IMG/VR virus record: IMGVR_UViG_2974666105_000001
Span: 1-64,000 of that record
Reading direction: 5' to 3' (one strand)
DNA length: 64,000 bases
DNA from: a virus
Lineage: Duplodnaviria; Caudoviricetes
Shown: in pieces, positions 831 through 32,281 of the stretch
Position numbering within the stretch: position 1 is the stretch's first letter
Layout of the letters: each line of letters opens with the position of its first letter
Made by a program: the position numbers and the translations under genes
The notes under the pieces: model-generated
Told to the model about the DNA's origin: nothing
Database searches by the model: none
What the model saw: the letters and a program-made list of their open reading frames with translations, nothing else

Positions 831-833
831 AAA

Positions 834-861: not shown

Positions 862-865
862 CGTA

Positions 866-2096: not shown

Positions 2097-2152
2097 TGTC
2101 TCTCACCATTCCTTTTCATATACTATATGTATGCCCCTAATCGGGGCGATTG

Positions 2153-2554
2153 CTAAGCTTGACTAGCTTGTGATTCTTGCACAGCGGATTCACTAGTTAC
2201 AGGAGCAACGGCAGATTTTACTTGTGATGATGCAACGGATGCTTGTGATACGGCCTGTGATACAGCTTGACTAGCTGCTTGCTTTGTGCTATTAACTTCG
2301 CTTTGAACCTCTGTCTCAATGTCTTCTTGGATCGTTGGGGCCGATACAGTTTGAACATCGGTTACAACACCGAGCATACCAAGAATTGTTAATACCGTGT
2401 TAATAACAGCAACAATACTGGTCCAGTCCCCAGGGAATTTAATCCCAAAGGCAAACAATACTTGTTGGATCAACACGATCAACAATGAGATAATCCCAGC
2501 GATCAATTTACCGTTCAAACTTCCATCGGCATTCTTAAAACTAATTTTTTTCAT
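2153..2554 (-). CDS. Holin
   Basis: Start MKKISF with AAGGA RBS; two TM helices and an S/Q/A-rich tail; downstream of the endolysin. Confidence 0.8.
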   Translation of the reverse strand: MKKISFKNADGSLNGKLIAGIISLLIVLIQQVLFAFGIKFPGDWTSIVAVINTVLTILGMLGVVTDVQTVSAPTIQEDIETEVQSEVNSTKQAASQAVSQAVSQASVASSQVKSAVAPVTSESAVQESQASQA

Positions 2555-2837
2555 TTCCTTTGGCTTCCTTTTCATATAGATGCTTAAATTCCATATCATG
2601 ACCATCTAGCCGGCTTTCTACCTTAATGACCCGATTTTCAAGACCATTAATCTGATCGGCACTCTGTTGTCTGAACTTCATACTCTCGTCAGTAAATTTA
2701 TCAATTCTGTTGCTCACTTGATTAAGTGGGTTCCTGACAGTTTTGTTTAAAATCCAATTAGCTAAAATGCAGACACTTGTTATGATCGCCACAATTGACC
2801 CCCATTCGTCCCAACCTAAACCGAGAAAAATGTGCAT
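2541..2837 (-). CDS. Small membrane protein of the lysis cassette (single TM + coiled coil)
   Basis: MHIFLGLGWDEWGSIVAIITSV TM followed by a heptad pattern; lies between endolysin and holin. Confidence 0.7.
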   Translation of the reverse strand: MHIFLGLGWDEWGSIVAIITSVCILANWILNKTVRNPLNQVSNRIDKFTDESMKFRQQSADQINGLENRVIKVESRLDGHDMEFKHLYEKEAKGNEKN

Positions 2838-2839
2838 AA

Positions 2840-4225
2840 TTACCGCACCACCAAACGTTGTCCAGGATAAATGGTCGACCAAGAATAAATACCATTTAAG
2901 CTGGCTAATTTTGATACAGTTGTACCGTTATCATTGGCAATCTTCCACAAACTATCACCTGAAACGACCGTGTGATACGTGTGAGAGACACCAACAACTC
3001 GCTTACCATAGCTTTCACCACCATTTACACCTAATGCAATGTAACCGTAGTAACCGTTAGACCGTAAGTATCTCGCCCAGACGTAGTCAGACTTGATAAT
3101 TACCTGATTATACTGAACGCTCTCACCACTAAAGTAGGTAGCTACCTTAGAGTACCCGGTTCCTGCCCCAGAACGTACGTTTAAAGTTGTGTTAGGGTAG
3201 AAAGTGCCATTTTGGTTGTAGGTTTGAGAGCTTGCTTTGTTGCCTGAGGCTGATTTTGAACTAGAACCTTGCTTTGTAACATGCTCTGCTAATGTCCAAC
3301 CAACAGCAGTGTTACCGCTCTTTAATAGTAACATCTGGTTTGACTTACCCTCAGTGACTTGTTTTACTTGGCCAACCGTATAAGTCTTATGAAGAACAGA
3401 GCTTGAAATTGGCGTCTTGGTGTCTCCAGCATCCCATTTTGCGACACTAGAATTAATCTTAACTTTATCACCAACTTTATATCCACCGACATAATACTTA
3501 GTTACATCTTGCTTGTTGGCTGCGTTGTCGCCAATCCACCACTTAACAGGATGCTTTGAGGTGATAACCTTGTTGGTATCAACTGCTAAACTAAGACTTG
3601 TTGAATAACTAGAGTCTGTGTGTTGCCATAAAGCCGGGTCTTTGAGATAATGATTGCTGTAGTTTGCTTCCCAGAATCCGTCGTAATTACTCATTGATCC
3701 GATGTAGTTATTGTAGAAATAACTGCCGGAATACAAGATAACTGGACGCTTGGTCAAACTTTGCATCTCACTACCCCACGCTGAAACAGCACTTGAATAA
3801 CTACCAGAAGTAGTTGTCATTTCTTCGGCATCGTTAGCAAAAAACTTCGCATGTGGAGCACGACTGTGCAGATCCTTCGCTTCTTGTTTGGCATCCGCAG
3901 CATTGATATAACGCGAATACGAATAAACGCCATATGGTGTCCCAGCCTTTTCAAGATTAGCAATAGTGTTCTTATATTGCACATCTTGATAATTAGATCC
4001 GTACTGAACCCGCACAATAACAAATGACGTCTCAGATTTTAATGCAAGCGCCTTTTGATAGGTAACTGCGCCTTGCCATTCTGAAATATCAACAACCTTT
4101 TTAACAACCGCACCATCGCTGGTATTAGCAGCTTTAGCTGTTTGTGGTAAGGCTGTGGCTCCAAACGCTCCTAGTGCCAGAGCAGTCATGGAGCCATATA
4201 GTGTACGTTTTACTTTATTTTTCAT
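2840..4225 (-). CDS. Endolysin: signal peptide + GH25 muramidase + SH3b-like + LysM
   Basis: VDISEWQG...D.E GH25 motifs, LNVRSGAG SH3b, C-terminal HTVVSGDSLWKIA LysM; N-terminal K/R-rich, hydrophobic and AKA signal peptide. Confidence 0.93.
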   Translation of the reverse strand: MKNKVKRTLYGSMTALALGAFGATALPQTAKAANTSDGAVVKKVVDISEWQGAVTYQKALALKSETSFVIVRVQYGSNYQDVQYKNTIANLEKAGTPYGVYSYSRYINAADAKQEAKDLHSRAPHAKFFANDAEEMTTTSGSYSSAVSAWGSEMQSLTKRPVILYSGSYFYNNYIGSMSNYDGFWEANYSNHYLKDPALWQHTDSSYSTSLSLAVDTNKVITSKHPVKWWIGDNAANKQDVTKYYVGGYKVGDKVKINSSVAKWDAGDTKTPISSSVLHKTYTVGQVKQVTEGKSNQMLLLKSGNTAVGWTLAEHVTKQGSSSKSASGNKASSQTYNQNGTFYPNTTLNVRSGAGTGYSKVATYFSGESVQYNQVIIKSDYVWARYLRSNGYYGYIALGVNGGESYGKRVVGVSHTYHTVVSGDSLWKIANDNGTTVSKLASLNGIYSWSTIYPGQRLVVR

Positions 4226-4319
4226 TCTATATGCACCTTTCTATAATATTTCTTGATTTATTTCGATTTAAAATTCAAATTTTATTTCATAAACAAGTGC
4301 TTATTCAATTGTTTACCTC

Positions 4320-4859
4320 CTAATTTAATATATCTTCCGGTGCTATGGAATACGGTGTATAAATGGTACCTCTTTCTAGCTTAGGCCCCGCTATTAGAAG
4401 GGTGTTTTCATTATTGGACGTTCTTTCTATTCTAGCGCTAAGCGTCCCATCATCTGTAACGGTGACTGTGCCGGAAACTCTTTTCCATGAATCATCAAGG
4501 TTTACTAATTGTGCACCAATATTAGTATTGATAGCTGTATTTGAGCTTCTAAAGTAAATATTCGATGAACCGGCACCACTAGCATACTTTGCATACACTG
4601 AGTAAGTGTAAGTCTCCCCTTTTTTAACATTTATAACTTGTGTTAACCCATTCCAGTCGTGAATCGTTGACATCACTGCTAGGTCATTAAAGGTGTCACC
4701 AGTTTTTTCCCAAGCATTATAACCTATCCAGTCATCTGAATTGCTAAAGTTTTCAGTATCAACAAATAGGTTTCTGCCGTATAAAATACTGTTATCTGAG
4801 TAAACAGCGTCAACCGCCTTGCCATTGTTAATCCATATTCCATGTGTTATATCTGCCAT
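4320..4859 (-). CDS. Tail-associated carbohydrate-binding-module protein (candidate receptor-binding)
   Basis: GRNL...YTYSVYAK...WKRVSGT...PKLERG..TPYS.APED pattern typical of phage CBM4-like domains. Confidence 0.7.
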   Translation of the reverse strand: MADITHGIWINNGKAVDAVYSDNSILYGRNLFVDTENFSNSDDWIGYNAWEKTGDTFNDLAVMSTIHDWNGLTQVINVKKGETYTYSVYAKYASGAGSSNIYFRSSNTAINTNIGAQLVNLDDSWKRVSGTVTVTDDGTLSARIERTSNNENTLLIAGPKLERGTIYTPYSIAPEDILN

Positions 4860-4864
4860 TTAAA

Positions 4865-5890
4865 TCACCCCTGAATCACGTACAAGCCGCTCTTGTCAGT
4901 TAGTGCATTATACTGCGCTTGGGTGACGACATTGATTACTGCATTATCACCCTTATCACCTTGGTCGCCCTTATCACCTTTATCTCCCTTGTCACCTTTA
5001 GCGCCGACAAGAGAGGCCAGCCATTGATTTACACTTCCAGAAAATCCAGCATTAACGGCAACTTGATAAGCAGAAATTCCTTGGTCGCCTTTGTCGCCTT
5101 TATCACCCTTGTCACCTTTAGCTCCAGTGTCACCTTTCATACCTTGCGAACCACTTAAATCGGCAACATACGTGAAGCTGGTGCCGTTCCACACATAAAG
5201 CTTACCGTCATCAGGGTCATTGACATCACTGGCAATCATGGTGAAATCACCATCGGAGAAGCCGGCACCGTTCATTGTAGCGATTGACGGGAACGTCTTT
5301 ACGATTTGGAAATCCTTCCCAGCGTCACCTTTGTCGCCTTTATCACCTTTAGCACCAACGAGAGAAGCAAGCCATTCCGCTTGTGAACCGTGATAGCCAT
5401 TAATTACCGCCACTTGGTAGGCAGATAGGCCATCATCACCTTTATCACCTTTATGGATTGTGCTTGCGGCCTCATTCATTGCTTGCACAAAGTCATCAAA
5501 AGTAATGGTGGTAATCGTGCTACCACCACTATCTTCAATGTTACTATTAATCATGAATCCTGTCATTGTATTGCTTGGATAAATTGACACTCCTGTTGAG
5601 TAAGTGACCCAAACTTCTAACAGGTATGATCCTGCTGGTAATCCGCTCATAAAGTTGGAATCAAAACTAATAACAATTTGACCAGATAAAGGATCAGTAA
5701 TACTTGACGTAGGAATGGTTTGAGACTTTAAGTATCCAGAATTGTTACCAAGTTTTGCGATGATACTCGTCGCGTTAGTAAGGTCAACAGGGTTACTATC
5801 TTCACCCAATACCATTGTGAAGCTGGTAGTTGTATCACCGATTTTTACAGTTTGAGCAGAAGTATCAGTAAACTCTAATGTTTTTGCCAA
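4865..5890 (-). CDS. BppU-like baseplate/fibre protein with collagen-like (Gly-X-Y) repeats
   Basis: N-terminal BppU-like domain (VKIGDTTTSF...YLLEVWV...IYPS); several (GDK)n runs. Confidence 0.8.
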   Translation of the reverse strand: MAKTLEFTDTSAQTVKIGDTTTSFTMVLGEDSNPVDLTNATSIIAKLGNNSGYLKSQTIPTSSITDPLSGQIVISFDSNFMSGLPAGSYLLEVWVTYSTGVSIYPSNTMTGFMINSNIEDSGGSTITTITFDDFVQAMNEAASTIHKGDKGDDGLSAYQVAVINGYHGSQAEWLASLVGAKGDKGDKGDAGKDFQIVKTFPSIATMNGAGFSDGDFTMIASDVNDPDDGKLYVWNGTSFTYVADLSGSQGMKGDTGAKGDKGDKGDKGDQGISAYQVAVNAGFSGSVNQWLASLVGAKGDKGDKGDKGDQGDKGDNAVINVVTQAQYNALTDKSGLYVIQG

Positions 5891-5906
5891 ACCAAATCAC
5901 TCCTTT

Positions 5907-6329
5907 CTATCGCTTATCAAAATCGACATCTAACGCTTCACATAACGCGTTATAGCACAGCGCTTCATCACCAGAGACACTTACATCAGCATGTAATAAG
6001 AAGTCTTGACAATCTTCTTTATGGTGTGAATAGGTCGCCTTTTCAAGTTCACCGTCTTCTAACATCAGCTTTTGATAAGCTTCTTGGAATTTTTTGCTAT
6101 TTTCTTTCGTGAATTGATAATTATTATCTTTAACAATTAATTGTCCGTCTTCATCTTTTTTGGCATATTGGTCAATCAAATCTTTTTGCATTTCAACAAT
6201 TTCTTCGTTTTTTGATGCTAAGATCTTAATTAAACGGGTACGCGCGATTGATTGATACCCCGATAGGGGCAGACGGTTTAAAAAACTGATTGAAGATGAT
6301 ACGAATTGATTTTGTAATTCAAATTTCAT
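5907..6329 (-). CDS. DUF1617-like protein
   Basis: Sequence pattern and position downstream of the tail fibre, as in Lactobacillus phages. Confidence 0.65.
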   Translation of the reverse strand: MKFELQNQFVSSSISFLNRLPLSGYQSIARTRLIKILASKNEEIVEMQKDLIDQYAKKDEDGQLIVKDNNYQFTKENSKKFQEAYQKLMLEDGELEKATYSHHKEDCQDFLLHADVSVSGDEALCYNALCEALDVDFDKR

Positions 6330-6343
6330 AATTTGGTTTCCTC

Positions 6344-6574
6344 CTATTTTTCTTCACTAGATGGTCTTAATGCCGTCAGACTATCAATCAATGTATTCAA
6401 CACCTTTGATTTGACCCTATCAGCGCCTCCAACGCCTCCAGTAATGGCAGTATTAAATTCGTCCATGGTAATACTGACCTGTGAACTGATACCAAGTGTA
6501 TTAATTTGAATGCTGATTGTCATAATGTTGTTCGTGTAATCTGGTTTATAATTCGTGATTAAAATGCTATCCAT
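6344..6574 (-). CDS. Hypothetical tail-region protein
   Basis: 76-aa ORF overlapping the fibre stop codon. Confidence 0.7.
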   Translation of the reverse strand: MDSILITNYKPDYTNNIMTISIQINTLGISSQVSITMDEFNTAITGGVGGADRVKSKVLNTLIDSLTALRPSSEEK

Positions 6575-9500
6575 TTAATTTGGCCTCCAATTTATTTAAT
6601 TTAGCTTCTAGTTCCATGTTGTGACCGTTTAATTGGTCAATTTCCTTTTGTTGTTCCTGCACCGTGGCTAGGGTGGCATTTAAAAGCACGCTGTCATCCA
6701 CCCCAACCAACTTGCCGTTTTCATCACGGGCAACAAACACGTCTGGCAATTGCCACTGTTTTGTTACATTAACGTCGTCAACAATGCTAGATAATCTCAA
6801 ATGACTGGTATTATCGTCAGTTTTGTACTGATAAGTGGCTAAATCAATTGAGTTAACTAGCTGCGCCCAATAAGCTGTGTCAGCCTTTTTAACGTCCCGC
6901 TTAACACTTAATAGAGATGACTTAACTAGGCTCGTATAGTGAACAGTAGCGGCATAGATGTCACCAGAGCTACCATCGTTACGATTAAAATGAATCGGGC
7001 CATTGTCAGAACTGGTAATCGTGTGATAGGTATTTATGTTGAAGTTGCCAATATCTAAAGAACGATTAAATTTAATGTTATTAGCACCCGAGCCATCAAT
7101 ACCAAAGCTGGCTGTCTTCATAGTTGGACCATTACCGACATACCAGATATTCTGTGTGCCATTAGGGTTGATATTGCCATATGGTGTAATAATGATACCC
7201 TTCGGTGTAACATCAGCAGAAGTACCGCTAAAGGTGATTTGTTGATTATCACCTTTAAAAGTAAGACCGTCGAGTGGACTTATCAATACATATCCATCTT
7301 GATTACTGCCAGTTACAGACTGTGAAAATGACATGTCTTTTCCATTTGTGTGACCAGCAGATAATACGATTTGGTTAGCACTTATGTTAGTGTCGTATGC
7401 CTCGTACTGGTTACTAGATGAGTTGGTTGCACGATATTTTGTTGTTAATGATCCAGTTGATAAATCTGTTTGCATAGCATCAGCAGCATTGAACATTGTC
7501 GTATAGATATGACCATTACTAGATATTGTTGTTGGATAAAATTGAGACGCATTATTGGCGTCATTAATGATGTCGCCACCATGGAACGTTGTCCCATTGA
7601 TAGTTGACGCACTAATATTTGTGCCTAAAATTGTACCGGCGCTAACAACATTACCTGTATCTGGCTGGTAGCCAGTTGAATGAGCGGTTTGTGTCAACAT
7701 TGGTGAGCTAAATAGAGCATGGCCTTTGCCGTTGTACGCCCAATACTGTAGGCCGACAGATGACGCAGTGCTAGGAGCATTAAAACCGTCGATAGTTAGA
7801 TACTGCCATGCCTGAGCACTACCAGTCCCGTGTAAATTTACACTGGTGTAATTCCCAGCCGGCAACCTGTTACCGTTGGCGTCATAGAAAGCTAGTGTCA
7901 TTTGGTATGTCATTGTAGCGTCGCTACCGGCGTCAATAAACCAGACTGACGCACTGTAAGGCTGTCCAGTCAAACCATTTAGTGGTACTCTTTTGGTTTG
8001 TCCAAAGTTTACCCAGTTCCCAGAACCAGTTGAATTATTAAACCCGACAGAAGGGACACCATCATGCAACGTAAAGTTTGAGTAATACCCCATCGAACCT
8101 ATTACCCACCCCGGAATATATGTCCCGTTGCCGCCAGACAATGCTGAGTTATAAACTAGGTTAGTTGAGCCACGGATAATTAAACTTGTAGCTGTGACAA
8201 GACCGTTCGAGTCTACTGTGAAAGTCCCGTTGTTAGTTGTAAAAGTATTGGCCGCAATGTCGGCCGCCGTTAACTTTTTACCAACAAGGAGCTTGTCGAT
8301 ATTTGCGCTTTTCATGATAACGGGGTCAACACTGTCAAGGAATACACTTTTACCAGACAGCGTTAATTGACCACTGGATGAGATTAGGGTTTTACCGGCT
8401 TGAATATTAATCTGGTCGACTAGGTCACCCTTGGTTACTCTAAGGTTAATATCGCCGCTTAACTGTGTGATTTGAGACTGCGTAGCTTGGTCTTCTGGAT
8501 TAAGAGACCAATCTGTTGCTACACTACCTTTTTCAAGTTTAATCCTGGTGATATGCACTATGTCCCCAACTGTACCCGAATTGAATGCTCCAACTGTTAT
8601 CGATAAAGTCCCACTATTTCCCCATACAGGCTTGATGATTCCTGTATATCTAGTTAAAGTATTTCCGCTGACACTTATAGAAGTTAGATTATCATAAGGA
8701 CCTACTTTTACATTTATACTAGAACTAGTGCTGGAGCTATCTACGTAGGCATAAAAACTAATCGTATATGTCGTGCCTGCAATTAAGGTCTGGCTTGCGG
8801 AATAATATATTCTGTTACCTGATGCAGCTTTAACAGCCAAAACTAAATTTCCACTAGAATCAAAACTGGTAGTTGTCCCTGGGTCTACTGTCCAATATGT
8901 TAAACTTTCATCTGAAAAATTAGAATTAGTTAATAAGTTAGTCCCAACCACACTATTATCAACTTGCGTTTGTAAGGTTTGGAAGTCGCTAGACTCAACC
9001 TTGCTAGAAATAGCATCAGCAGTTTGTGTCTTGTACGTGTTAAAATCACTAGATTCAACCTTGCTAGATATTTCTTTAGCAGTTGTCGCTTGGTATGCTG
9101 AGAAGTCACTAGTAGCCACCTTTTGAGCTATTAATCCAGCCGTCTGCGTTTTGTAAGTTGAGAAGTCACCATTATCAACCTTGCTAGCAATCTGACTAGC
9201 AGTTTGTGTTTGGTAGGTTGAGAAAGCACTATTACTTACCCTATCCGCTATCTCACTAGCCGTTTGTGTCTTGTCAGACGCATAAGCTGAGTTAGAAACT
9301 TTGTCATCAATTAAGTCAGCGGTTTGTGTTTTGTAAGTGTTAAAGTCACTAGATTCAACTTTACTTTCAATTGACTTTGCAGTTGTAGCTTGGTATGCTG
9401 AGAAGTCACTAGTAGCCACCTTTTGAGCTATTAATCCAGCCGTTTGGGTTTTATAAGTTTCAAAGTCACTGTTAGCTACCCTTTCGGATATTTGACTAGC

Positions 9501-11006: not shown

Positions 11007-11033
11007 TACTTCACCTTCTTCTTAAACGTGTAG

Positions 11034-13418: not shown

Positions 13419-13457
13419 AATACTCCTCCTTATATGTATGAATGGGTATCCCCATCC

Positions 13458-15242: not shown

Positions 15243-15300
15243 CGGTTATTCCTCCCACTCTTATTCTATGTACATGGGGGAAATATCCCCCATAAAATGG

Positions 15301-20961: not shown

Positions 20962-21033
20962 TTAATAAATCCTCCTCACATACGAAAACAAGCCCACCAA
21001 AGTAGACTTGACAAATAAACTAATCAAACGTTT

Positions 21034-21628: not shown

Positions 21629-21685
21629 ATAAATCTCCTCGTCTTTCATATTAAATTATGTATACCACCAAAAAGGTGGTAGTTG

Positions 21686-21757
21686 CTATTCAGCAACGAT
21701 GGTTGCGCCATCATAACTTGGAGTTATCGACACCACTTTAGGCGCCGGCGTCACTGG
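21686..21757 (-). CDS. +1-frame C-terminal extension of the major tail protein (PVTPAPKVVSITPSYDGATIVAE*)
   Basis: Open +1 frame from ACC-CCC-AGT; 13/23 identical to the capsid +1 extension; ends just before the intergenic hairpin. Confidence 0.8.
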   Translation of the reverse strand, partial: PVTPAPKVVSITPSYDGATIVAE

Positions 21758-22349: not shown

Positions 22350-22366
22350 TAGTAATTACCTCTTTC

Positions 22367-23199: not shown

Positions 23200-23611
23200 C
23201 GTCATCATCTCCATATCCGCCAGTGGATGCTTGATTGCCACCGTTCTTAACAACTGATTTCAATGACAATAAATCATAAGTGACGATAGCGGTAGTATCG
23301 GGAACTTTGTAGGTGATAATATAAAACTTGCCTCGATACTTAGCCCGATAACTATCATAGTCAAAATTAGGACGGTGTTTAACGGCAATGACCATCGTGT
23401 CTTCCATATCCATACCGTTAACACCAACAATGTTTCTGTCTGATACTCGATACGGAGCGCAATGGAATGTGTATTTAATTTTAAAGTTGCTATCATCTAA
23501 TGTGTCGGCACCATTATCAATAATGTTACCGTTGGACAGCTCTGTGTATTCATCTGCTACTCCTAGATAAACCTTTTCTTTGTATCGCCACAGGTCAACT
23601 TTATTAGCCAT
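23189..23611 (-). CDS. Head-tail adaptor / head-closure protein
   Basis: Position and SPP1 gp16-like pattern (IAVKHR...AKYRGKFYII). Confidence 0.7.
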   Translation of the reverse strand: MANKVDLWRYKEKVYLGVADEYTELSNGNIIDNGADTLDDSNFKIKYTFHCAPYRVSDRNIVGVNGMDMEDTMVIAVKHRPNFDYDSYRAKYRGKFYIITYKVPDTTAIVTYDLLSLKSVVKNGGNQASTGGYGDDDVGS

Positions 23612-23623
23612 TTATGCACCTTC

Positions 23624-23917
23624 TTAAATTGAGAAATTGCGTCCATAGTTGATAACCGTGTCAAGCGACGCAACATTTTGAGTCCCACTTGTAACAGGAG
23701 ATCCATCTCTACGTAAGTATGATGCAGTTGCGACCTCTAAAACGGCTGTGTCAATCATGCTTTGATAGTCTTCTTGTCTCTTGTTAAGAAACTGGTTGTC
23801 TTTTCCTTGAACATATAAATCAACATAGTTCTTAGCGTTATCTAAATAAATCTTAACGTCTTCATCGTCATCTGCATTAATGTGATTTTTAAAATCATCG
23901 AGAGAAACTGACATCAT
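23624..23917 (-). CDS. Head-tail connector (gp6/gp15-like)
   Basis: SLDDFKNHI..DDDEDVKIYLDNAK pattern. Confidence 0.85.
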   Translation of the reverse strand: MMSVSLDDFKNHINADDDEDVKIYLDNAKNYVDLYVQGKDNQFLNKRQEDYQSMIDTAVLEVATASYLRRDGSPVTSGTQNVASLDTVINYGRNFSI

Positions 23918-23951
23918 TGCACCTCCTATGTACCCGTTAAGGGTTTACCCC

Positions 23952-24401
23952 TTAAGCGGTTGGCGTTGCTTTAACTGCTTCCGACTTAGCTGATTCCCCA
24001 GCGCCGTTCTTAACCGTTGCCTGGACAGTATATTCAGTACCAGCAGTCAGTCCAGTAATTGACCCAGTTAATGAAGTCTTTAAATCTACCGTTCCATTAT
24101 TGGTGCCGTCAGTCCAATAAACAACTCGGTCGGTGATTGCACTGCCTGTATTTTCACCATCAACTAAAGTAACATCAATTTTGCCAGAACCAGCGGTGAG
24201 CGTTGCGGTTGGTGCTGATGGTACTTTATCTAAAGTTGTAAAATCTGAAATTGTTGTCTTCTCAGATGCACCGGCATATGCAATTTGATATCCAGAAACC
24301 TTTGTGTTCGGCTTTAACCCAGTAATTGTAACTGGAGATGGCTGATTGTCAATTTTCTTTGCGCCAGCATTATCGTAAACATCAAAATTTGCCAAAAACA
24401 T
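23952..24401 (-). CDS. Fibronectin type III protein (putative virion decoration): N-terminally truncated FN3 + complete FN3
   Basis: ITGLKPNT and ITGLTAGTEYTVQA...GES FN3 motifs; the first domain begins at a strand-C-like segment. Confidence 0.8.
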   Translation of the reverse strand: MFLANFDVYDNAGAKKIDNQPSPVTITGLKPNTKVSGYQIAYAGASEKTTISDFTTLDKVPSAPTATLTAGSGKIDVTLVDGENTGSAITDRVVYWTDGTNNGTVDLKTSLTGSITGLTAGTEYTVQATVKNGAGESAKSEAVKATPTA

Positions 24402-24456
24402 AACCTCCTATCGTGAAACCATATGTATGCCCCCACAATGGGGGTAATCGGATTTA

Positions 24457-24529
24457 CTACTTGGCAACAACCGTTGCACCATCGGCGGTCGGTGTTACAC
24501 TAGTCACCGTCGGTGCCGGATTAATTACT
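24457..24529 (-). CDS. +1-frame C-terminal extension of the major capsid protein (VINPAPTVTSVTPTADGATVVAK*)
   Basis: Open +1 frame across the capsid stop, ending in tandem TAG TAA just before the intergenic hairpin; homologous to the MTP extension. Shift site uncertain. Confidence 0.72.
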
Positions 24530-25801
24530 CGCAGGCTTAGCTACAACGAATGCTGATGGATTAGTAACAGTACCGTCCATATATCCGTTAAGAACAACCA
24601 AGTGACCACCAGTCATAGCTTGCGTAGTATCTGAAACTACGTGAGTTAACTGTAAGCCTTGCTTAGTCATAATCGTATAACCAGCGTTAAAGTTACCAAG
24701 GATAATTTGACCATTCTTGTTACCGTTCAAGACGTCTGAAACGAACACTGGGATTCCTTGGAAGGAATAACCAGGGCGTACACCAACTGCACCGGCGATA
24801 GCCGTTTGCATTTGTGGCTTAAAGATCAAATGTTCGTTGTCGTCATCTTTCAACTTAGAAACAGCATTGAAGGCATCACGAGACATAACAAAGATCGCTT
24901 GGTCTAAATATGCAGGGTTAATTGACATAGTAAAGTCAAGCATTTCATCCAAGGTTGGGGTTGCACCGGCTAAAGTAACGACCTTAACGTCATCAGCACC
25001 GATAACTGGTTTGAACGTCTTGTTAGCGTCTTCGCCAGTCTTAGCACCAACTAATACCGCGCGTTCAATAGCTTTACCTAATGAACGACCCAAACGGCCA
25101 ATAGCATAATCGACAACGTCCGGTGCACTATCGTTAATCATCATTTCTGATAATTGCAATGCGGCACCGACACGCTTTTGAGTCAAGGTAACGTACTTCA
25201 AAGTTGGGGTTTGTGCCTTAACAGCTTCGAGTTCACCAACGAAACCATCGTCAGAAGTATCGTTTTCACGAACGACTTCCAAGTTACCATTCATAGAACC
25301 AACCTTGTTTGACAAAGCAAACACTGGTGAAGTTTCTTGTAACTTCTGGATAATTGTTTGTGAGACGCTCGTTGGAATTAAAACACCACCGTTTGATGAA
25401 GTACCATTAACGGCATTACCCCATGACAAACCATTGTCAGGAAGATCACGAGATTCTTGTGGCAAGTCTTTTTGTTCCTTGACAGCTTCCACGTACTTCT
25501 TGGCTGCTTCACTCCCACGTAACTTACCACGGATCATATCAGCAGTGGCACGCTTTTCGAGAGCTTTAAATTGCTTCTTTTCCATTTCCACACTCCGTTC
25601 ATTGTTTGCTGGAACTGCGTTACGACGTTCTTCGTCCAGTTCAGCAATATCATCGTTAATTTTTGAAATATCGTCTTTAATTGAACGCATTTCCTTAATT
25701 TGATCATCAGTGATCGTCTTATTATCAATGGCGTCTTTAAAACCGCCCAGTTTTTCCTTTAAAGCAGTCCGCTTTTCTAAAAGACCTTTCTTAGTCTTCA
25801 T
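24521..25801 (-). CDS. Major capsid protein (HK97 fold, with delta domain)
   Basis: GGAGG 8 nt before the ATG at 25801 (MKTKKGLL); coiled-coil delta domain, GGVLIP and FVGEL motifs. Confidence 0.93.
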   Translation of the reverse strand: MKTKKGLLEKRTALKEKLGGFKDAIDNKTITDDQIKEMRSIKDDISKINDDIAELDEERRNAVPANNERSVEMEKKQFKALEKRATADMIRGKLRGSEAAKKYVEAVKEQKDLPQESRDLPDNGLSWGNAVNGTSSNGGVLIPTSVSQTIIQKLQETSPVFALSNKVGSMNGNLEVVRENDTSDDGFVGELEAVKAQTPTLKYVTLTQKRVGAALQLSEMMINDSAPDVVDYAIGRLGRSLGKAIERAVLVGAKTGEDANKTFKPVIGADDVKVVTLAGATPTLDEMLDFTMSINPAYLDQAIFVMSRDAFNAVSKLKDDDNEHLIFKPQMQTAIAGAVGVRPGYSFQGIPVFVSDVLNGNKNGQIILGNFNAGYTIMTKQGLQLTHVVSDTTQAMTGGHLVVLNGYMDGTVTNPSAFVVAKPASN

Positions 25802-26824
25802 CTGCCATGCCTCCAATTTCTTCATAGAGCTTAGATGCTTCAAGACTCCGTTTTCTTGCTTCTTTTTTTCGTCGTCTTTCTTGCTTGGTTTCTTACCAGC
25901 CGGAACTTGAACTCCGTCTTTTGGCTTATCATCGTCCGTTTGAGTGTCTTCGGGTGCGTCGCCAGAATCGTCTGGTTCTGGAACGTCCGAGTCATCGTCA
26001 CGGGCGGATAATACTCCTTGAATACCAGTAAGAATGCTTTGCGTTAAAGTAGCTGCGAAGTCGTCAAGGTCGATAGTTTGCTTTGTGTCAGTAACTGCAT
26101 CCTTACCATCTGGTTGATCGTCACGCTTTGCTGGCTTTACCACAACTTCATTTGCTGGTAATTTACCGGCACGACGTTCGAGTTCTTCACAAAGATCTCT
26201 TGTTTCTACACTGTCAAGCTTCAAGTCATTACCCTCCTTTTTAATATTCACAATTTCTGAAACGCTCTTGATACCTCTTTTTTCAAGGTCTCGTAGCGTC
26301 TTTAATCCACGTGCTTCAATGCTAGAACTTAAATATGCTGGGAATCTAACAGCGGAAACTTCCTTTAGGAACAGTTCATTGACTGTTCTAAGAGGAACAC
26401 CATCATCAAAGTCTCCGCCATCCATGTCCCAACTGTCATCTAGGACGATAAACCCAAAACTCATACTAGTGATAACACCAGTCTTAATTAACTCATAGGT
26501 ATCTCGTCCGTCATTTGTATCTAGGATTTGAGCTTCCATATAAAGCCCTTGGTCGTCTACTCTTAAGACGAGCGATCCATTTGCGGTAGTAGCCAGAAGC
26601 TTGTCCGAGTCATGTTCAGCATAAAAGTCGATTACGTCTCCATCTGAGATTGCAGACTCGAAAGCCGTTGGAGAGATCGTCTCTCGGAACGGGCTACCAT
26701 CAGCCGACATAACTTGACTGTAAGATCCAGCTCGGTTAACATAACCAGAAACTTTAAGATTATCATCATCAAAAGATAAATCTCTAGTTTCAAAGCTAAG
26801 AGTTCTTAATTCTGTCTTTTTAAT
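24521..26824 (-). CDS. Prohead protease (HK97/S78 family), in frame with the capsid gene as sequenced; -1 frame ends at 25791
   Basis: VSGYVN..FRETISPTAF..H..L..T.NGSL.L..D..GL..SFGF..EVSAV..PAY motifs; probable ATT start at 26824 behind AGGAGG. Confidence 0.85.
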   Translation of the reverse strand: MKKTELRTLSFETRDLSFDDDNLKVSGYVNRAGSYSQVMSADGSPFRETISPTAFESAISDGDVIDFYAEHDSDKLLATTANGSLVLRVDDQGLYMEAQILDTNDGRDTYELIKTGVITSMSFGFIVLDDSWDMDGGDFDDGVPLRTVNELFLKEVSAVRFPAYLSSSIEARGLKTLRDLEKRGIKSVSEIVNIKKEGNDLKLDSVETRDLCEELERRAGKLPANEVVVKPAKRDDQPDGKDAVTDTKQTIDLDDFAATLTQSILTGIQGVLSARDDDSDVPEPDDSGDAPEDTQTDDDKPKDGVQVPAGKKPSKKDDEKKKQENGVLKHLSSMKKLEAWQMKTKKGLLEKRTALKEKLGGFKDAIDNKTITDDQIKEMRSIKDDISKINDDIAELDEERRNAVPANNERSVEMEKKQFKALEKRATADMIRGKLRGSEAAKKYVEAVKEQKDLPQESRDLPDNGLSWGNAVNGTSSNGGVLIPTSVSQTIIQKLQETSPVFALSNKVGSMNGNLEVVRENDTSDDGFVGELEAVKAQTPTLKYVTLTQKRVGAALQLSEMMINDSAPDVVDYAIGRLGRSLGKAIERAVLVGAKTGEDANKTFKPVIGADDVKVVTLAGATPTLDEMLDFTMSINPAYLDQAIFVMSRDAFNAVSKLKDDDNEHLIFKPQMQTAIAGAVGVRPGYSFQGIPVFVSDVLNGNKNGQIILGNFNAGYTIMTKQGLQLTHVVSDTTQAMTGGHLVVLNGYMDGTVTNPSAFVVAKPASN

Positions 26825-28256
26825 CTTGATTGCCTCCTAACGCATTGTTATCAGCCTTATGTTGATGGCTGTCTTGCTGATTTTTTGTATTTGGTGCTTT
26901 CTGGGCACCTTTTGCAGGCGATTTGCCGACTGTGGCACTATCAGAATCAATCGATGTGTTTGCACCAACATCAGCACCACCAGCAATCCCAAGGTTAGGA
27001 ATCTTCATTTCACCAGTCTTAGGATAATACAGAACAGATCCAAGACTTAAATTAATGAAGTCGTCTCCAGCAATGTCTGCGAACCCAAATTTGTTTCTGA
27101 ACTCATCATAAGAAATCAAGCCTTTGTCATAAAGTGCCCCATAAGAGGCGACTTTTTCTTTGAAGGTATTCTGCATGATTGTGTCAGTATCGAACTTAAA
27201 GAAAATTCCGTCTTCTTTTTCGCTCTCTAGCAATAATTCCTTATTGATAGCAGCTTCAAAGCTTGACAGAATCGGTTTTAAACAATACTGGAAGAATTGG
27301 AGGTTATTTTGCTCATTAGAGTTATACTTGTTCGCACTCGCATTGATTAGTGTTTCTGGAATATTAAACATGCGCGCGATTTCACCAAGCATTGCTTTTT
27401 TGCTGGAATCTAGTTGCATATTATCTGGATTCGTGCTAATCTGTTTATATTCAAGCCCGCCTTCTAAGAACAATGTCTTACCAGCGTTTTTGCTACCCGT
27501 GTAACTTTGGTTAAACTGCGATTTCAAGCGGTCTAACGTTTCTTGCGCCACGGTCCTTTGGCTAGAAACAGCTCCAACTGGAACGGCACCGTTGGCCATT
27601 AAGTTCTTTTCATAATCTCGTTGTGCCAGCGCTAGTTGCAACGTGGGTGCATAATCCGACATGATACCAGTAGAAGTAATACCATCTGGAGTGTCTGAAA
27701 TGATGTTCATTAGGTCATCTTCATCATAGTTATAACTGCCAGACTGGGAATTATACGTATAGACGCCATAATACTTATATCCACCATACGTATAAACTTC
27801 GGTTGTCATGTCTTTAGACATTAAGGGATAAATACCGTTAATGTTGTTTTTGCTTCTATCTATATACGAGAACGATCTACCATACAGAAGCAAGTCCTTG
27901 ACAACTGAGCGCTTATAATTAAAAGCGGACATTGACTCGTTGACTTGCGAATTAAGTAATGCTGTACGATAGTCATTCTTAACGGGTAACGGGACGCCTT
28001 CATCGCTATTCTTCATCATAAGAATATCAAGTGACGCAACAGTATCAGCAACAAGTGCTACTGCGGCACCAAACGACGGAATTGCCATGACAGAATCTTC
28101 TGTGATTGGCTCCGTATCTCCGTTTAAAAGCATTGGTCCAGATCCAGTTTGGGATCTTACAAAAGTGCCGCCTCGACTGTCTTGTCCCGGCTGTTGTTGC
28201 GTAAATGGTAAGCTGAAAATATTCTTTAGCGACCATTTATTATTACTCTTAGCGAT
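26820..28256 (-). CDS. Portal protein (HK97 family)
   Basis: LLYGRSF..., EIARMFNIP motifs. Frame is open 41 codons upstream of ATG 28133; SD AAAGGGGTGA precedes an ATC at 28256. Confidence 0.9.
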   Translation of the reverse strand: MAKSNNKWSLKNIFSLPFTQQQPGQDSRGGTFVRSQTGSGPMLLNGDTEPITEDSVMAIPSFGAAVALVADTVASLDILMMKNSDEGVPLPVKNDYRTALLNSQVNESMSAFNYKRSVVKDLLLYGRSFSYIDRSKNNINGIYPLMSKDMTTEVYTYGGYKYYGVYTYNSQSGSYNYDEDDLMNIISDTPDGITSTGIMSDYAPTLQLALAQRDYEKNLMANGAVPVGAVSSQRTVAQETLDRLKSQFNQSYTGSKNAGKTLFLEGGLEYKQISTNPDNMQLDSSKKAMLGEIARMFNIPETLINASANKYNSNEQNNLQFFQYCLKPILSSFEAAINKELLLESEKEDGIFFKFDTDTIMQNTFKEKVASYGALYDKGLISYDEFRNKFGFADIAGDDFINLSLGSVLYYPKTGEMKIPNLGIAGGADVGANTSIDSDSATVGKSPAKGAQKAPNTKNQQDSHQHKADNNALGGNQD

Positions 28257-28274
28257 TTTTAGTTCACCCCTTTG

Positions 28275-29984
28275 TTAAAGCAAAGTGATATTGGCCTGTC
28301 CACCGATGATATTTGAAAATTCATCAATTTCCCATAGTGACATTGCGTCAACCACGGCTGCAACCATATCAATTTTGCCGTTTGATTTTTTCTTATTTAA
28401 GAAATAAGACAAGTTACTGTCTGTAACCATTCTTGCGTTCATAAAGTTCTCTTTGAGCATATCGTTCTTATCATATGCAAAATTTCCATCTTCAATAGAC
28501 TCACGAAGTAATTTTGTCCCTGGGTATAATCCCTTTGCGTTTTGCGGAACCTCAATGCCATCATATCCAGCAGCCAAAAACTTAGCTACCGTAGATCGTG
28601 CGTTCCACTTATCATACCCAAAGCCCTTAATATTAACCCCGTATTTTTCCTCTAACTTAAAGAAGAAGTCTTCAACAAAACCATAATCAATCGTTGTGTC
28701 TCCAGACGAATAACCCCAACCTTCGTTTTCGCTATGCTGGTAGTCCCATCCTTCGACCTTTGATTTCTCATTAATTCTTCCGGCTGGGAAGAACGACCAT
28801 GCTTTTGCTACATATTTAGCATGACTTTCATCAAATGTAACCATCGCAAGACCAAAATTATCACGAGATTCAGCGAAATCAAGACCCACGAACACATCTT
28901 TGCCATACCAATCGTAACCTTGAACTAATTCTGAATTATCAAGATCATTCTCTGTGACAAACTGTTCAGCCTGTGCACCGTCAACGAAGATATTCATGAA
29001 CTTCGTCAAAAAGTTTTGACGCTTATCAGCATAGGTAATAGCATCTTCACGATCTTTAAAAAGTCTTTTTTTAACTGATGGAAATTCTTGCGAAAGAGGA
29101 TTGACTTTTATTAGCTCTTTATCGCTAGTTGCCCACTTTTTTGGCTCATCTGGACGATATATTAAAGCAAAATAAGTCGGATCATATAACTCCCCATCAA
29201 CAATCTTGTCCTTGGCGCGCTCTATTTCAGCAGTCATAGGATTATGTAATGAATCATACGCAGTTGAAATAATAATACCAAGCGGATTTGAAACAAGGTT
29301 TTGTCCAGATTGCATGGCTTGTATAGGATAACCATTTGGTAAGGCCCCGACTTCGTCAGCTAAAAACGCTACTGGCTCGCGGGCATCAAGCCTGTTGTTC
29401 GAGTTAGCTAATGGCTTATAAGTATTCTTTGTCACTAAACAAGTGATTTCCTTATTGGTTACTTTGAAGAATCTCTCCAGTTCTGGAGAACCATCAATCA
29501 AAGAGTCAACCTGTGTCTTCAATTGAGACGACAAGTCTAAGTCTGGAGCGACTGAATAAAATTTTGAGTATCTAGGCTCCAAAATTAACAATAAGATAAA
29601 AATTATAGAACTTATGAAAGTTTTTCCATTCTTGCGTGGGATAAGCATAGTAGCTGTGTTATATCTACGCAAACTATGGTCATCTTTATGTCTCCAGCAG
29701 AAAATATTAACAAAAAAGAACCACTGAAACCCAGCGAGGGCATCATAAGCACTTTCTCCTCGTCTAGGTCCAGTTGCCATAGTGATTAATTTAAGTAGCT
29801 TAGACACCTTATCAAGCGCCCTTATATCAAAATAGTAGTCGCCTTTTCCGTTTAAACTATCATTAACTTCTCTAATGAAGCGATCGGTAACAATTTTTAC
29901 ATCATTGTTGACGATAATATCGCCGTTTTTGATTCCAAGCGCATATTTGTAAGCTGGATGATTAAATATTTCTTTATCTTTCAA
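28275..29984 (-). CDS. terL: Terminase large subunit
   Basis: IPRKNGKT Walker A, LADE Walker B, IISTA, VGLDFA, YDKWNA, KIDMVAA motifs; TTG start behind GAGGTG. Confidence 0.96.
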   Translation of the reverse strand: MKDKEIFNHPAYKYALGIKNGDIIVNNDVKIVTDRFIREVNDSLNGKGDYYFDIRALDKVSKLLKLITMATGPRRGESAYDALAGFQWFFFVNIFCWRHKDDHSLRRYNTATMLIPRKNGKTFISSIIFILLLILEPRYSKFYSVAPDLDLSSQLKTQVDSLIDGSPELERFFKVTNKEITCLVTKNTYKPLANSNNRLDAREPVAFLADEVGALPNGYPIQAMQSGQNLVSNPLGIIISTAYDSLHNPMTAEIERAKDKIVDGELYDPTYFALIYRPDEPKKWATSDKELIKVNPLSQEFPSVKKRLFKDREDAITYADKRQNFLTKFMNIFVDGAQAEQFVTENDLDNSELVQGYDWYGKDVFVGLDFAESRDNFGLAMVTFDESHAKYVAKAWSFFPAGRINEKSKVEGWDYQHSENEGWGYSSGDTTIDYGFVEDFFFKLEEKYGVNIKGFGYDKWNARSTVAKFLAAGYDGIEVPQNAKGLYPGTKLLRESIEDGNFAYDKNDMLKENFMNARMVTDSNLSYFLNKKKSNGKIDMVAAVVDAMSLWEIDEFSNIIGGQANITLL

Positions 29985-30110
29985 AATAATCACCTCAATA
30001 TATGTAAAGCCCAACTGTGGCATGGGCCAGCCATTTTATTACAGTTGATGGTTATAAAAGAACATGGAAAGAAAACGCCCACCTGTTTTGCTTTATTGAG
30101 TTAAGCTACA

Positions 30111-30183
30111 AGCGAATAATCGGACTCGAACCGATGTTATCAGATTGGAAATCTAATGTGTTGCCCAACTACACTATATTCGC
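30111..30183 (-). tRNA. tRNA-Gly(TCC)
   Basis: GCGAATA/TATTCGC acceptor stem, TTAGA-TT TCC AA-TCTGA anticodon arm, GGTTCGAGTCC T arm, U73; no encoded CCA. Confidence 0.9.
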
Positions 30184-30325
30184 ATAAAGTCCCCACTTGG
30201 GCCACATTGTTAAGAGGTGTGTGGGGTGCGATTGTGTATGGTCGGATAAGTAGACGTCACTTATCGGGACTAGTGGTCAGATACAAAGCCTCTGCCGGGC
30301 AATATGGCGACCTCAACCATATTTA

Positions 30326-30522
30326 TGTGATTACTAGGGAGTCGAACCCTAGACTTAATCTGATTCTAAGCACCAACTTCTGTGCTAGTGTCGAACTAGC
30401 TCGCCATCAGATTTCAGATATTGCATAACTCAATGGCCCCCTGTATTTCAGCGTGCACATAGCCTACTCTGTGAGAGCATATGAATTAAGCTTTAGCATT
30501 TTTACCTTTCCGCCATAATCAC
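30326..30522 (-). ncRNA. Oversized tRNA-Leu-like RNA (197 nt)
   Basis: Perfect GTGATTA/TAATCAC acceptor stem, A73, Leu-type D arm (TGGCGGAA..GGT..ATGC), TAGGG-TTCGACT-CCCTA T arm; about 110 extra structured nt in place of the anticodon arm. Confidence 0.65.
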
Positions 30523-30554
30523 GTGTTAAAATGTAAGTTTTATTAGTAATACAA

Positions 30555-30704
30555 CCACCCAGGCGGGTATCGAACCCACGCACAACGAATGCCTTTGTTC
30601 AAGCACGCTGTTAATCTCTACTATTTTGACAAAAGCTGACTAAGGCTATGCAGCGACATACCTTTAACCACTCGGAAGATTGATGTGCTCTCCATGACTG
30701 GGTA
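30555..30704 (-). ncRNA. Oversized tRNA-Ser-like RNA (150 nt)
   Basis: TACCCAG/CTGGGTG acceptor stem, G73, GTGGG-TTCGATA-CCCGC T arm, variable-arm hairpin, displaced CCGAGTGGTTAAAGG D motif. Confidence 0.55.
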
Positions 30705-30741
30705 AAATTAAGCTGGTTTTGTAGAGTTCCATAAACTCTTA

Positions 30742-30813
30742 CTGCTCGGGCTGGGATCGAACTAGCGATCTCTTGATTAACAGTCAATTATTCTACCGCT
30801 GAACTACCGAGCA
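30742..30813 (-). tRNA. tRNA-Asn(GTT)
   Basis: TGCTCGG/CCGAGCA acceptor stem, TAGTTCAGCGGTAGAA D arm, CT GTT AA loop, T arm, G73. Confidence 0.9.
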
Positions 30814-30825
30814 ATGATTATGTAT

Positions 30826-31028
30826 GCCCGACACACTAGCACCCGTAGCGCCGTGTTATCAGGGCTTTATCTATCTCAACCGAGGTTAGACCAGATAGAT
30901 TTGGTTTTTCTACTCGCAAAAGAATGCTCACCTCCAAAGGCTACTCCATTATGGAACTTTTACTTTCGGGTGCGCGCTTCTCGGAACTTAAATTACTATG
31001 TAACATAAGCGGGTTTTACTACCCCGCG
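30826..31028 (-). ncRNA. Structured non-coding RNA candidate between terS and tRNA-Asn
   Basis: Stems GCGGG/CCCGC, ATCTATCT/AGATAGAT, and GCCC..GGGC enclosing a further hairpin; no credible ORF. Confidence 0.5.
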
Positions 31029-31071
31029 TGTATTATATCTTAAATATGTACTGCTGACGTTGTGTCAGCTT

Positions 31072-31566
31072 TTAACTGTTGATAATTTTCTCTAACTCAC
31101 TGTTACCACTGCTTCGATCACCAATGGTCATGGCGCTCAATTGAGCACGGCTAGACGGAGACAGTCCGTATTGGACAGCCAATGTTCTAAAACGATCTAA
31201 AAACTTAATATGTGTGTTAATGGCTGGATTTTCAACCATTTTGACACCAAATTTTGTTCTTTGCTCAACCATTAATTCATCATTTTTCATTGCTTTGTTG
31301 GATTGTTCCATCATAGCCAAACATTCAGCTAGAGCACCCACACCCATTCTGTCTACATTTGATAGAATGTCAACATCGGCTAAAAGGTGGTAGATATAAT
31401 GATAATACTTTTCGGCAGTTTCCCATCCTTTAATAAAGTCAGGTGCCACGTTTACTTCATTATCTTTGCCTTTGAGCCGTTCTTCATCCGCGATACGTGC
31501 TCTTAATTCTGATTGAGACTGATTATGACCTTTGGTTAGAGCAGCGGGCTTTCTTGCATTAGGCAA
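31072..31566 (-). CDS. terS: Terminase small subunit (P27 family)
   Basis: MPNARKP N-terminus (probable TTG), ENPA, and YGLSPSSRA motif. Confidence 0.93.
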   Translation of the reverse strand: MPNARKPAALTKGHNQSQSELRARIADEERLKGKDNEVNVAPDFIKGWETAEKYYHYIYHLLADVDILSNVDRMGVGALAECLAMMEQSNKAMKNDELMVEQRTKFGVKMVENPAINTHIKFLDRFRTLAVQYGLSPSSRAQLSAMTIGDRSSGNSELEKIINS

Positions 31567-31579
31567 TTTATCCACCTCT

Positions 31580-32032
31580 CTAAAACGTTAAATCTTTATC
31601 TAAATCTATTTTTACTTTTGTTAAATCCCAGTCGAAATCAATTCCGCCAAGCCCCATAGCAAGGTTGCACTCTCGACATAACGTAACACAATTTGATTCG
31701 TCATACATCAATGTCGGGAACTTGACCCTTGGCTTAATATGGTGGACAGTTAGATCGGTGTAGACATGCTTATGAAGCTTAATTAAGCATCTCTGACACT
31801 CACCACCGTCCCTAAGAATGATCTGTTTTCTAAAAATCCGCCAACGTTTGGACGTTAATTCCCTGTCTGTATCGCGTTGATTGATTCTATTCTCCTTGGC
31901 AGTTCTATTATTTTTTCTTTTTTTAATTGGACAATCATGTGTTGAAATGTCAACAATCATGCCACAATAAGGGCATATTTTGGAGTCCTTACCCGATTTC
32001 GTATTCTTCAAGATCATCACCATTAACTTCAA
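31580..32032 (-). CDS. Packaging-associated HNH endonuclease (HK97 gp74-like)
   Basis: RDGGECQRC...LTVHHIKP...YDESNCVTLCRECN; directly upstream of terS. Confidence 0.9.
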   Translation of the reverse strand: MKLMVMILKNTKSGKDSKICPYCGMIVDISTHDCPIKKRKNNRTAKENRINQRDTDRELTSKRWRIFRKQIILRDGGECQRCLIKLHKHVYTDLTVHHIKPRVKFPTLMYDESNCVTLCRECNLAMGLGGIDFDWDLTKVKIDLDKDLTF

Positions 32033-32120
32033 TTAGAATACCGCAATAGGGACAAACAATATATGTGTCTTTCTTGCCTACTTCGACTGGAGTTGAACAT
32101 GACGGACATTCTTGTGCCAT
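31989..32120 (-). CDS. Small zinc-ribbon protein (43 aa, missing from the ORF track)
   Basis: MAQECPSC...VCPYCG...; GGGAG RBS. Confidence 0.75.
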   Translation of the reverse strand: MAQECPSCSTPVEVGKKDTYIVCPYCGILIEVNGDDLEEYEIG

Positions 32121-32281
32121 GCGTCTCACTCCCTTTTAATATGTATTACCAATGCAAAGACTGAAAGAAATCATTGGTATGCGCTTCCTTGGCGAATTTT
32201 TTGAACAATAATGTTCGTCTCTATAACTTTGACGAGTTATGTACGAGAAGATAAAATCTTCTCAGGAGGAATAATGAATGA

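Follow-up and report, generated by a model that had tools for sequence, protein, structure and literature searches.

A hairpin followed by UACAUA recurs at the late gene junctions of a Lactiplantibacillus plantarum phage and probably marks processing sites for a MazF-type RNase

Why does the same short word follow stem-loops of unrelated sequence at one junction after another between the late genes of a phage? The question is raised by a 64,000-nt stretch of viral DNA (hereafter the window; positions 1 to 64,000 of IMG/VR record IMGVR_UViG_2974666105_000001), which belongs to the 79,099-bp genome of a virulent siphophage of Lactiplantibacillus plantarum, a Lenus-like member of the Tybeckvirinae with 96% identity to phages Lenus and Nyseid. 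All of its late genes (Zn-ribbon/HNH, terS, a tRNA island, terL, portal, protease/capsid, tail, lysis and recombinase) are encoded between 32557 and 866 on the minus strand, and 7% of this block is noncoding. An initial annotation of the window had pointed out ten places where a hairpin is followed on the sense strand by TACATA, and had proposed that the late polycistron is cut there by MazF. This proposal is supported by four features read from the sequence: a conserved hexamer, co-varying stems, a purge of the word from the sense strand of genes only and the presence of a mazF gene in the phage itself. We therefore consider that the elements are probably programmed endonucleolytic processing sites cut by a UACAUA-specific RNase of the MazF/EndoA type, the likeliest being the phage's own MazF. 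What we observed is the arrangement of the sites; that they are cut, by which enzyme and with what effect on RNA stability is what we infer.

The association between hairpin and hexamer is tight. Within the late block, a hairpin ends 0-6 nt before 12 of the 13 sense TACATA words, the remaining one (29243) lying within terL without a hairpin. For at least 12 of 13 such words to fall in noncoding DNA, a uniform model gives a probability of 2e-13, which rises to 8e-8 if AT-richness is allowed for by a factor of three. All ten positions of the initial annotation carry the motif, with a stem-loop ending 0-2 nt before it at each; every entry of that list is thus real, but the list was incomplete since the sites at 30997 (gap of 6 nt) and 32238 (gap of 1 nt) had been missed. 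A further, thirteenth site lies outside the window, ahead of the mazF gene. Likewise, the estimate of about ten sense TACAT in late coding sequence was close to the actual count of 12. In a blind scan of the genome for perfect-stem hairpins, TACATA was found 0-3 nt after 9 of the 40 strong sense intergenic hairpins versus none of the 145 hairpins that are antisense or coding. In the late block alone, TACATA-type hairpins account for 10 of the 12 strong sense intergenic ones (nine strict and one with a 4-nt gap). TACATA by itself displays a 2-3 fold intergenic enrichment genome-wide; the signal is its conjunction with a hairpin. Finally, the hexamer is predicted to be more often unpaired than control intergenic hexamers (0.66 versus 0.44, p=0.0025).

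The comparison with relatives indicates which parts of the element are constrained. Six junction classes (before the recombinase, Tal, Dit, tail chaperone, connector and FN3 genes) were followed in seven genomes belonging to three genera, and the hexamer is present in every case while the stem sequences differ. At the recombinase junction (2126), for instance, B2, Gut-P1, Satyr, Maenad and P1 have an ortholog of the site with a different stem. Among the 69 distinct hairpins collected from these seven related genomes, the gap to the hexamer is 0-3 nt in 64, loops are of 3-6 nt and stems of 5-13 bp, mostly 6-9. The fixed part is limited to the six letters: position -1 is a purine in 52/69 and position +1 is seldom C, the flanks being otherwise nearly free. 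RNAalifold revealed compensatory double changes at three junctions (3/10, 2/6 and 3/7 pairs), despite some misalignment. The sense hairpin is more stable than its complement in 47 cases versus 6, with the hairpins having been initially chosen on the sense strand, and the sense-strand hairpins contain 36 G.U pairs. The search for conservation and covariation suggested in the initial annotation thus found an invariant hexamer and co-varying stems, and the G.U pairs together with the compensatory changes point to an element that would act at the RNA level. TACATAGGAGGTG, at the 23927 site, is identical in 7/7 genomes, the arrangement at 30819 ahead of tRNA-Asn is also present in Satyr, and the CTTATGT spacer of the 30997 site is kept in B2, Gut-P1 and P1, Satyr having another spacer.

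The word is also strongly counter-selected elsewhere. Compared with synonymous-codon shuffles, the coding sequence of this genome contains 2 sense TACATA versus 14.1 expected, and the deficit recurs in the relatives B2 (2/14.5 seen/expected), Satyr (3/10.4), Gut-P1 (2/12.1) and P1 (0/9.3), as well as in ATCCB (1 versus 16.7 expected). In all six genomes, the complement TATGTA occurs at its expected count. The depleted strand tracks gene orientation in each block, the effect being strongest in the late block (1 versus 8.6 expected). The count of the motif in coding sequence and elsewhere, which had been recommended initially, accordingly yields a sense-only purge from genes once codon usage is taken into account. 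When all hexamers are scanned, the strongest depletions mostly concern restriction-type words that are lost on both strands; among the 2662 hexamers with an unremarkable complement, TACATA ranks second for sense-only depletion, the first being a Shine-Dalgarno (SD)-like word. Single-letter variants of TACATA that are clearly depleted (z <= -2.9) are only three, i.e. the palindrome TACGTA, TACTTA (38 versus 69) and TACATC (20 versus 38).

These preferences correspond closely to those of known enzymes. B. subtilis EndoA/MazF cuts only U/ACAUA according to end-mapping (PMC11780869), so that the conserved sixth letter of the phage motif matches this enzyme exactly. UACAUA is also the strict hexamer of Listeria MazF and the preferred site of S. 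aureus MazF, for which UACUUA and UACAUC are weak off-targets (bioRxiv 10.64898/2026.08.06.743204); the depleted TACTTA and TACATC are those same two off-targets. The initial annotation had named UACAU as the MazF code. A MazF-type word it is, but the conserved unit has six letters, UACAUA, and not five.

Other aspects of word usage were noticed in the same scans. Many restriction-type hexamers are nearly missing from both strands of this genome and of its relatives B2 and Satyr (CTGAAG/CTTCAG, CTCAAG, TTCGAA, GATATC, TCTAGA, ATGCAT, AGTACT, CTGCAG and GATC-containing words), and such a two-strand loss is a strong signature of restriction avoidance. For the SD-like words CAGGTG, GCAGGT and TGTAGG, the depletion is limited to the sense strand.

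Could the elements be signals for transcription instead? No TACATA hairpin has at least 6 T in the next 8 nt, and the nine sense-strand T-tract terminators all belong to the early and middle blocks (35-47 kb and 71-75 kb), as the initial annotation had noted when it set the late hairpins apart from early and middle terminators. An intrinsic (Rho-independent) terminator was consequently rejected for lack of a U tract behind the TACATA hairpins. A sigma-70 promoter (-35/-10 with 16-18 nt spacing) was rejected as well: its -35 region would be a variable hairpin, and TACATA is the late-strand -10 hexamer in none of the 120 promoter-like matches listed, such matches being only about 1.5-2.5 standard deviations more frequent than in shuffled sequence. 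Loops and stems of varying size, together with a Lenus annotation that lists no phage RNA polymerase, led us to discard an N4-type DNA hairpin promoter, and a T7-type RNase III site, cut within a duplex of about 20 bp or more, was discarded because stems of 5-13 bp are too short.

A less canonical possibility is that TACATA acts at the DNA level as a late promoter or activator-binding element, similar to the -10 box of T4 late promoters and placed after terminator-like hairpins. About a dozen sense-oriented sites per genome, located upstream of late genes, would suit such a role; the motif stands behind genuine T-tract terminators in 3-521, Semele and ATCCB, and the copy before mazF overlaps a TTGACA-17-TATGCT promoter. 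We nevertheless consider this explanation quite improbable. The motif directly abuts the GGAGG of the connector gene in 7/7 genomes, and a start 6-8 nt downstream would delete this SD sequence; the argument that the initial annotation drew from the 23927 site against a -10 box therefore gains strength from the relatives. Moreover, a GC-rich hairpin whose sequence varies would occupy the -35 region, the gene depletion concerns only the sense strand and extends to phages devoid of the elements, and G.U pairs and compensatory changes indicate RNA. The phage yielded neither a Sigma70_r2 nor an ArpU family protein, a lone Sigma70_r4 match being below the family cut-off, and the 0-3 nt spacing from the hairpin would be left without explanation. 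The promoter, which had been kept as an alternative in the initial annotation, is thus weakened, although it may apply to the myoviruses, in which the motif stands behind true terminators.

Alternatively, hairpin and UACAUA may be bound rather than cut, for instance by an antiterminator, a translational regulator or MazF acting as a binder, or may constitute a factor-dependent terminator. Protein-binding operators typically combine a conserved RNA structure with a short single-stranded word, and the missing T tract behind the hairpins would agree with such a terminator or operator. However, no candidate protein for this word is known besides MazF, and the genome-wide purge from coding sequence suggests that the word is harmful in mRNA, which better fits cutting. 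We hold this alternative to be highly improbable.

The candidate enzyme, an intact MazF homologue, is encoded outside the window, at 69839-70204 of the genome, in a plus-strand block with replication and nucleotide-metabolism genes. Its 121-aa product is identical to the Lenus protein annotated "MazF-like growth inhibitor" and belongs to the MazF/PemK toxin family, as judged from its matches to PF02452 (65.4 bits for a cut-off of 23.1) and to phrog_1936 "MazF-like growth inhibitor" (1e-37). Among solved structures, its best matches (E about 1e-15) are the UACAU(A)-cutting MazF proteins of B. subtilis, B. anthracis and S. aureus. Residues R33, P34 and T56 align with the catalytic Arg25/Pro26 and Thr48 of B. 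subtilis MazF, whose roles are as cited in PMC8634880, and do not vary among 13 clade members. The gene occurs in all Tybeckvirinae genomes examined (56-100% identity), and ATCCB, the L. brevis member, has a more distant copy (39%). No upstream co-transcribed antitoxin was found: the 67 nt between the methyltransferase gene and mazF contain no ORF (open reading frame) and leave no room for one, so the locus is not a type II MazEF module. All the relatives likewise have MazF without an upstream antitoxin. The purge of the word and the moderate predicted accessibility of the hexamer are indirect hints that the phage protein, the most likely enzyme, may have EndoA-type specificity for UACAUA.

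The surroundings of mazF deserve a description of their own. A 107-aa ORF (genome 70201-70524) overlaps the mazF stop codon (ATGA) and is followed by a 182-aa ORF (70527-71075). The two ORFs show synteny with mazF throughout the Tybeckvirinae examined and match only PHROGs of unknown function. The 107-aa ORF has no Pfam match and a poor AlphaFold model (mean predicted local distance difference test score of 59), and its product is a candidate inhibitor or partner of MazF. Upstream of mazF (genome 69780-69838), TTGACA is followed by a 17-nt spacer, TATGCT, ATA and then TACATA, and an AGCATAC...GTATGCT palindrome covers the spacer and the -10 hexamer. This arrangement is kept in Lenus, Nyseid and B2, and is found upstream of small pre-mazF ORFs in Satyr and P1. 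The leader may combine an operator with a self-cleavage site, giving autoregulation.

The distribution of the sites among phages bears on which enzyme would cut them. When strict hairpin+TACATA sites in sense intergenic DNA are counted, the MazF-encoding Lactobacillus phages have 6-9 (L. plantarum Tybeckvirinae), 5 (ATCCB), 10 (herellevirus 3-521) and 6 (herellevirus Semele), versus 1 in the 131-kb genome of LP65 and 0 in each of 8014-B1, phiJL-1 and Lb, four Lactobacillus phages in which a PF02452 check found no MazF. Sites and phage gene thus co-occur as expected, in a number of independent lineages that is small and counts among the points against our interpretation. There are others. The MazF-free phages purge sense TACATA from coding sequence as strongly as the others (LP65, 1 versus 27.7; phiJL-1, 0 versus 5.0; Lb, 0 versus 4.5; 8014-B1, 0 versus 3.4), and 75 other MazF-bearing viral contigs show no general purge (191 versus 157 expected) and 12 sites among 750 hairpins. 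Most of these contigs lack both features, the pattern is absent as well from Perkons and NatCom_42228, and possession of a phage mazF is not by itself predictive of the system. Many hairpins in 3-521, Semele and ATCCB resemble ordinary terminators flanked by A and T. In addition, the hexamer is partly paired in the prediction at 4-5 sites, and enzyme binding might be impeded by a hairpin lying just 0-1 nt away from the scissile U. As for the enzyme, its beta1-beta2 loop has a 3-residue insertion relative to B. subtilis MazF and it differs at the positions aligned to Gly18 and Glu20 of the latter; because of this insertion and of the changed base-contacting loop residues, the specificity of the phage MazF is unreadable from its sequence.

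Since MazF-free phages also purge the word, the purge does not require the phage mazF and a host enzyme may cut. As method controls, Psychrobacillus phage Perkons (93 versus 60.6) and a Clostridium phage (8 versus 5) show no purge. This implies that some factor in L. plantarum and L. brevis cells would penalize UACAUA in any phage message, for which a host MazF or PemK is the obvious candidate. On that basis, the same RNA sites may be cut by a UACAUA-specific RNase of the host, whether a MazF/PemK encoded by the chromosome or a plasmid or some unrelated enzyme; the phage MazF would then have another role, for instance host shut-off or competitor exclusion, and the phage would exploit or tolerate host cuts at buffered positions. 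MazF-family genes do exist in L. plantarum, i.e. NP_786238.1 in WCFS1 (PMC3519753) and pemK on plasmid p256 (PMC10832526); a single contig scan for a host MazF returned only relatives from Lachnospiraceae. Conversely, core-type MazF is reported missing from "Lactobacillus", a statement perhaps not covering Lactiplantibacillus (bioRxiv 10.64898/2026.08.06.743204). Furthermore, a host MazF is normally kept inactive by its antitoxin, and hairpin+UACAUA sites are almost confined to phages with their own MazF. Cutting by a host enzyme appears to us rather unlikely.

If the phage MazF is indeed the cutter, or failing that a host enzyme of the same specificity, the late transcript of ~32 kb would be cleaved at U^ACAUA in the single-stranded stretch just downstream of each stable hairpin. 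The piece upstream of the cut would terminate in the hairpin and a 3' tail of 1-4 nt, too short for 3' exonucleases. PNPase and RNase R/II need a longer single-stranded toehold, a requirement that would account for the tight 0-3 nt spacing. The other piece, downstream, would begin with 5'-OH-ACAUA and have an intact SD sequence 0-30 nt further on; an SD sequence near the 5' end is a known 5' stabilizer in B. subtilis. About a dozen modules would be released in this way: the packaging genes, the freed tRNA island, terL to capsid, the decoration protein, connector to major tail protein, chaperone with tape measure, Dit, Tal to holin and the recombinase. Such cuts may also tune stoichiometry, as the initial annotation had proposed. 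Being purged of UACAUA elsewhere, the phage messages would be spared by the nuclease, and the position of mazF in the replication block would fit an expression ahead of the late genes. More tentatively, orphan MazF and hairpin-UACAUA punctuation may form a self-contained system of message maturation and host shut-off, i.e. a domesticated toxin that would have arisen or been retained in at least three Lactobacillus phage lineages. Host mRNAs containing UACAUA would be destroyed, and the late polycistron would be cut at a dozen chosen points into hairpin-capped units of differing stability. We see this broader proposal as possible, somewhat short of an even chance.

The sites of the late block are collected in the table below, together with the terminator-like hairpins of the same strand.

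Table. Hairpin-UACAUA elements and terminator-like hairpins on the late strand (window coordinates)
Feature	Position	Strand	Location and remarks
Strong T-tract terminator	833..862	-	End of late block
5-bp GC stem + 1 nt + UACAUA	2126..2147	-	Holin / tyrosine recombinase gene junction
Hairpin + 1 nt + UACAUA	13433..13457	-	Dit/Tal junction; SD begins 2 nt past motif
9-bp hairpin + 0 nt + UACAUA	15267..15294	-	Tape measure gene/Dit junction; compensatory changes at 3/10 pairs
Weaker T-rich hairpin	20989-21010	-	Sole other terminator-like site on late strand
7-bp hairpin + 0 nt + UACAUA	21657..21681	-	Major tail protein / tail chaperone junction
Hairpin + 1 nt + UACAUA	23927..23959	-	Directly adjoins GGAGG of head-tail connector gene
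6-bp hairpin + 2 nt + UACAUA	24422..24444	-	Protease/capsid ORF to FN3-domain gene
Hairpin + 1 nt + UACAUA	30001..30028	-	End of tRNA island; 16 nt before terL TTG start
Long imperfect hairpin (-20.8 kcal/mol) + 1 nt + UACAUA	30819..30865	-	4 nt before tRNA-Asn
Hairpin + 6 nt + UACAUA	30997..31027	-	Within terS-terL noncoding island; absent from first list
6-bp hairpin + 2 nt + UACAUA	31045..31069	-	Right after terS stop codon
Long-loop hairpin + 1 nt + UACAUA	32140..32179	-	Before Zn-ribbon ORF, HNH and terS genes
8-9 bp hairpin + 1 nt + UACAUA	32238..32263	-	After first late-strand gene (32282-32557); absent from first list

Several observations concern the regions around these sites. The noncoding island of ~1 kb between terS and terL (30024-31071, minus strand) carries tRNA-Asn and tRNA-Gly and is bracketed by hairpin-UACAUA sites. 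It also contains additional T-arm-like stretches (GGTTCGA...) that neither ARAGORN nor Rfam calls, the Rfam scan yielding the two tRNAs and no other RNA family; these stretches could be decayed tRNAs or other small RNAs. At 24521-26710 (minus strand), one 729-aa ORF spans what are two overlapping genes in Lenus (prohead protease and capsid family protein), which reflects either a true protease-capsid fusion or a discrepancy in frame between these records. Away from the late block, a gap between early genes (40100-40310) harbors a cluster of short ACACGCATATACACA-like repeats with several TACATA on both strands. A similar repeat cluster is found in Gut-P1 at 9.5-9.9 kb, and the region may be an origin or an iteron region.

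Our literature search found no publication on hairpin-UACAUA punctuation or on a processing role of phage MazF. If the proposed mechanism holds true, an RNase of a toxin family would work as a precise mRNA-maturation enzyme for a virus, following a simple and transferable code in which any stable hairpin is followed by UACAUA. It would give a reason for the "orphan" mazF genes of virulent phages, now annotated only as growth inhibitors, and would illustrate how an RNase with a 6-nt target shapes whole phage genomes, its word being purged from genes and kept at junctions. Besides, the system would be a Gram-positive counterpart to the processing by RNase III in T7 and RegB in T4, and could be turned into a compact tool for processing operons in lactic acid bacteria.

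With EndoA (MazF-Bs, ndoA) and the MazF of S. aureus and L. monocytogenes, the phage system shares the six-letter word, the Pfam family and the aligned catalytic Arg and Thr; as for S. aureus MazF, the off-target words UACUUA and UACAUC are depleted in phage genes too. Unlike these enzymes, the phage protein has no upstream MazE and its beta1-beta2 loop is longer; its identity is about a third by a by-eye estimate. Its predicted cleavage sites are not scattered but form a conserved, hairpin-linked punctuation of one operon. In T7, early and late mRNAs are processed by host RNase III at intergenic sites, and the upstream RNA keeps a stabilizing 3' hairpin. The same outcome is predicted here for a polycistron cut at programmed intergenic sites, except that RNase III cuts inside long duplexes whereas the stems here are of 5-13 bp and the cut would fall beside them. 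The RegB protein of T4 is a phage-encoded, sequence-specific RNase that cuts GGAG in the phage's own messages, but it has a fold unrelated to that of the phage MazF, acts on early mRNAs, which it inactivates at SD sequences, and depends on ribosomal protein S1. ToxN/ToxI and Cas6/Csy4 likewise process a repetitive precursor by means of a small endoribonuclease whose cut is fixed in position with respect to a sequence or a hairpin. Those enzymes depend on a specific repeat or hairpin sequence, whereas the hairpins of the phage are unrelated and only the hexamer is fixed. Finally, in SPbeta and phi3T, a host MazF serves as a defence, the phage transcripts are enriched in its sites and the phages produce the inhibitors AimX and YosL (10.1101/2023.04.27.537455, PMC10769878). 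Both situations would involve a UACAU(A)-specific MazF acting on phage transcripts in Bacillota; here, it is the phage that encodes the nuclease, purges its sites and retains a chosen dozen of them.

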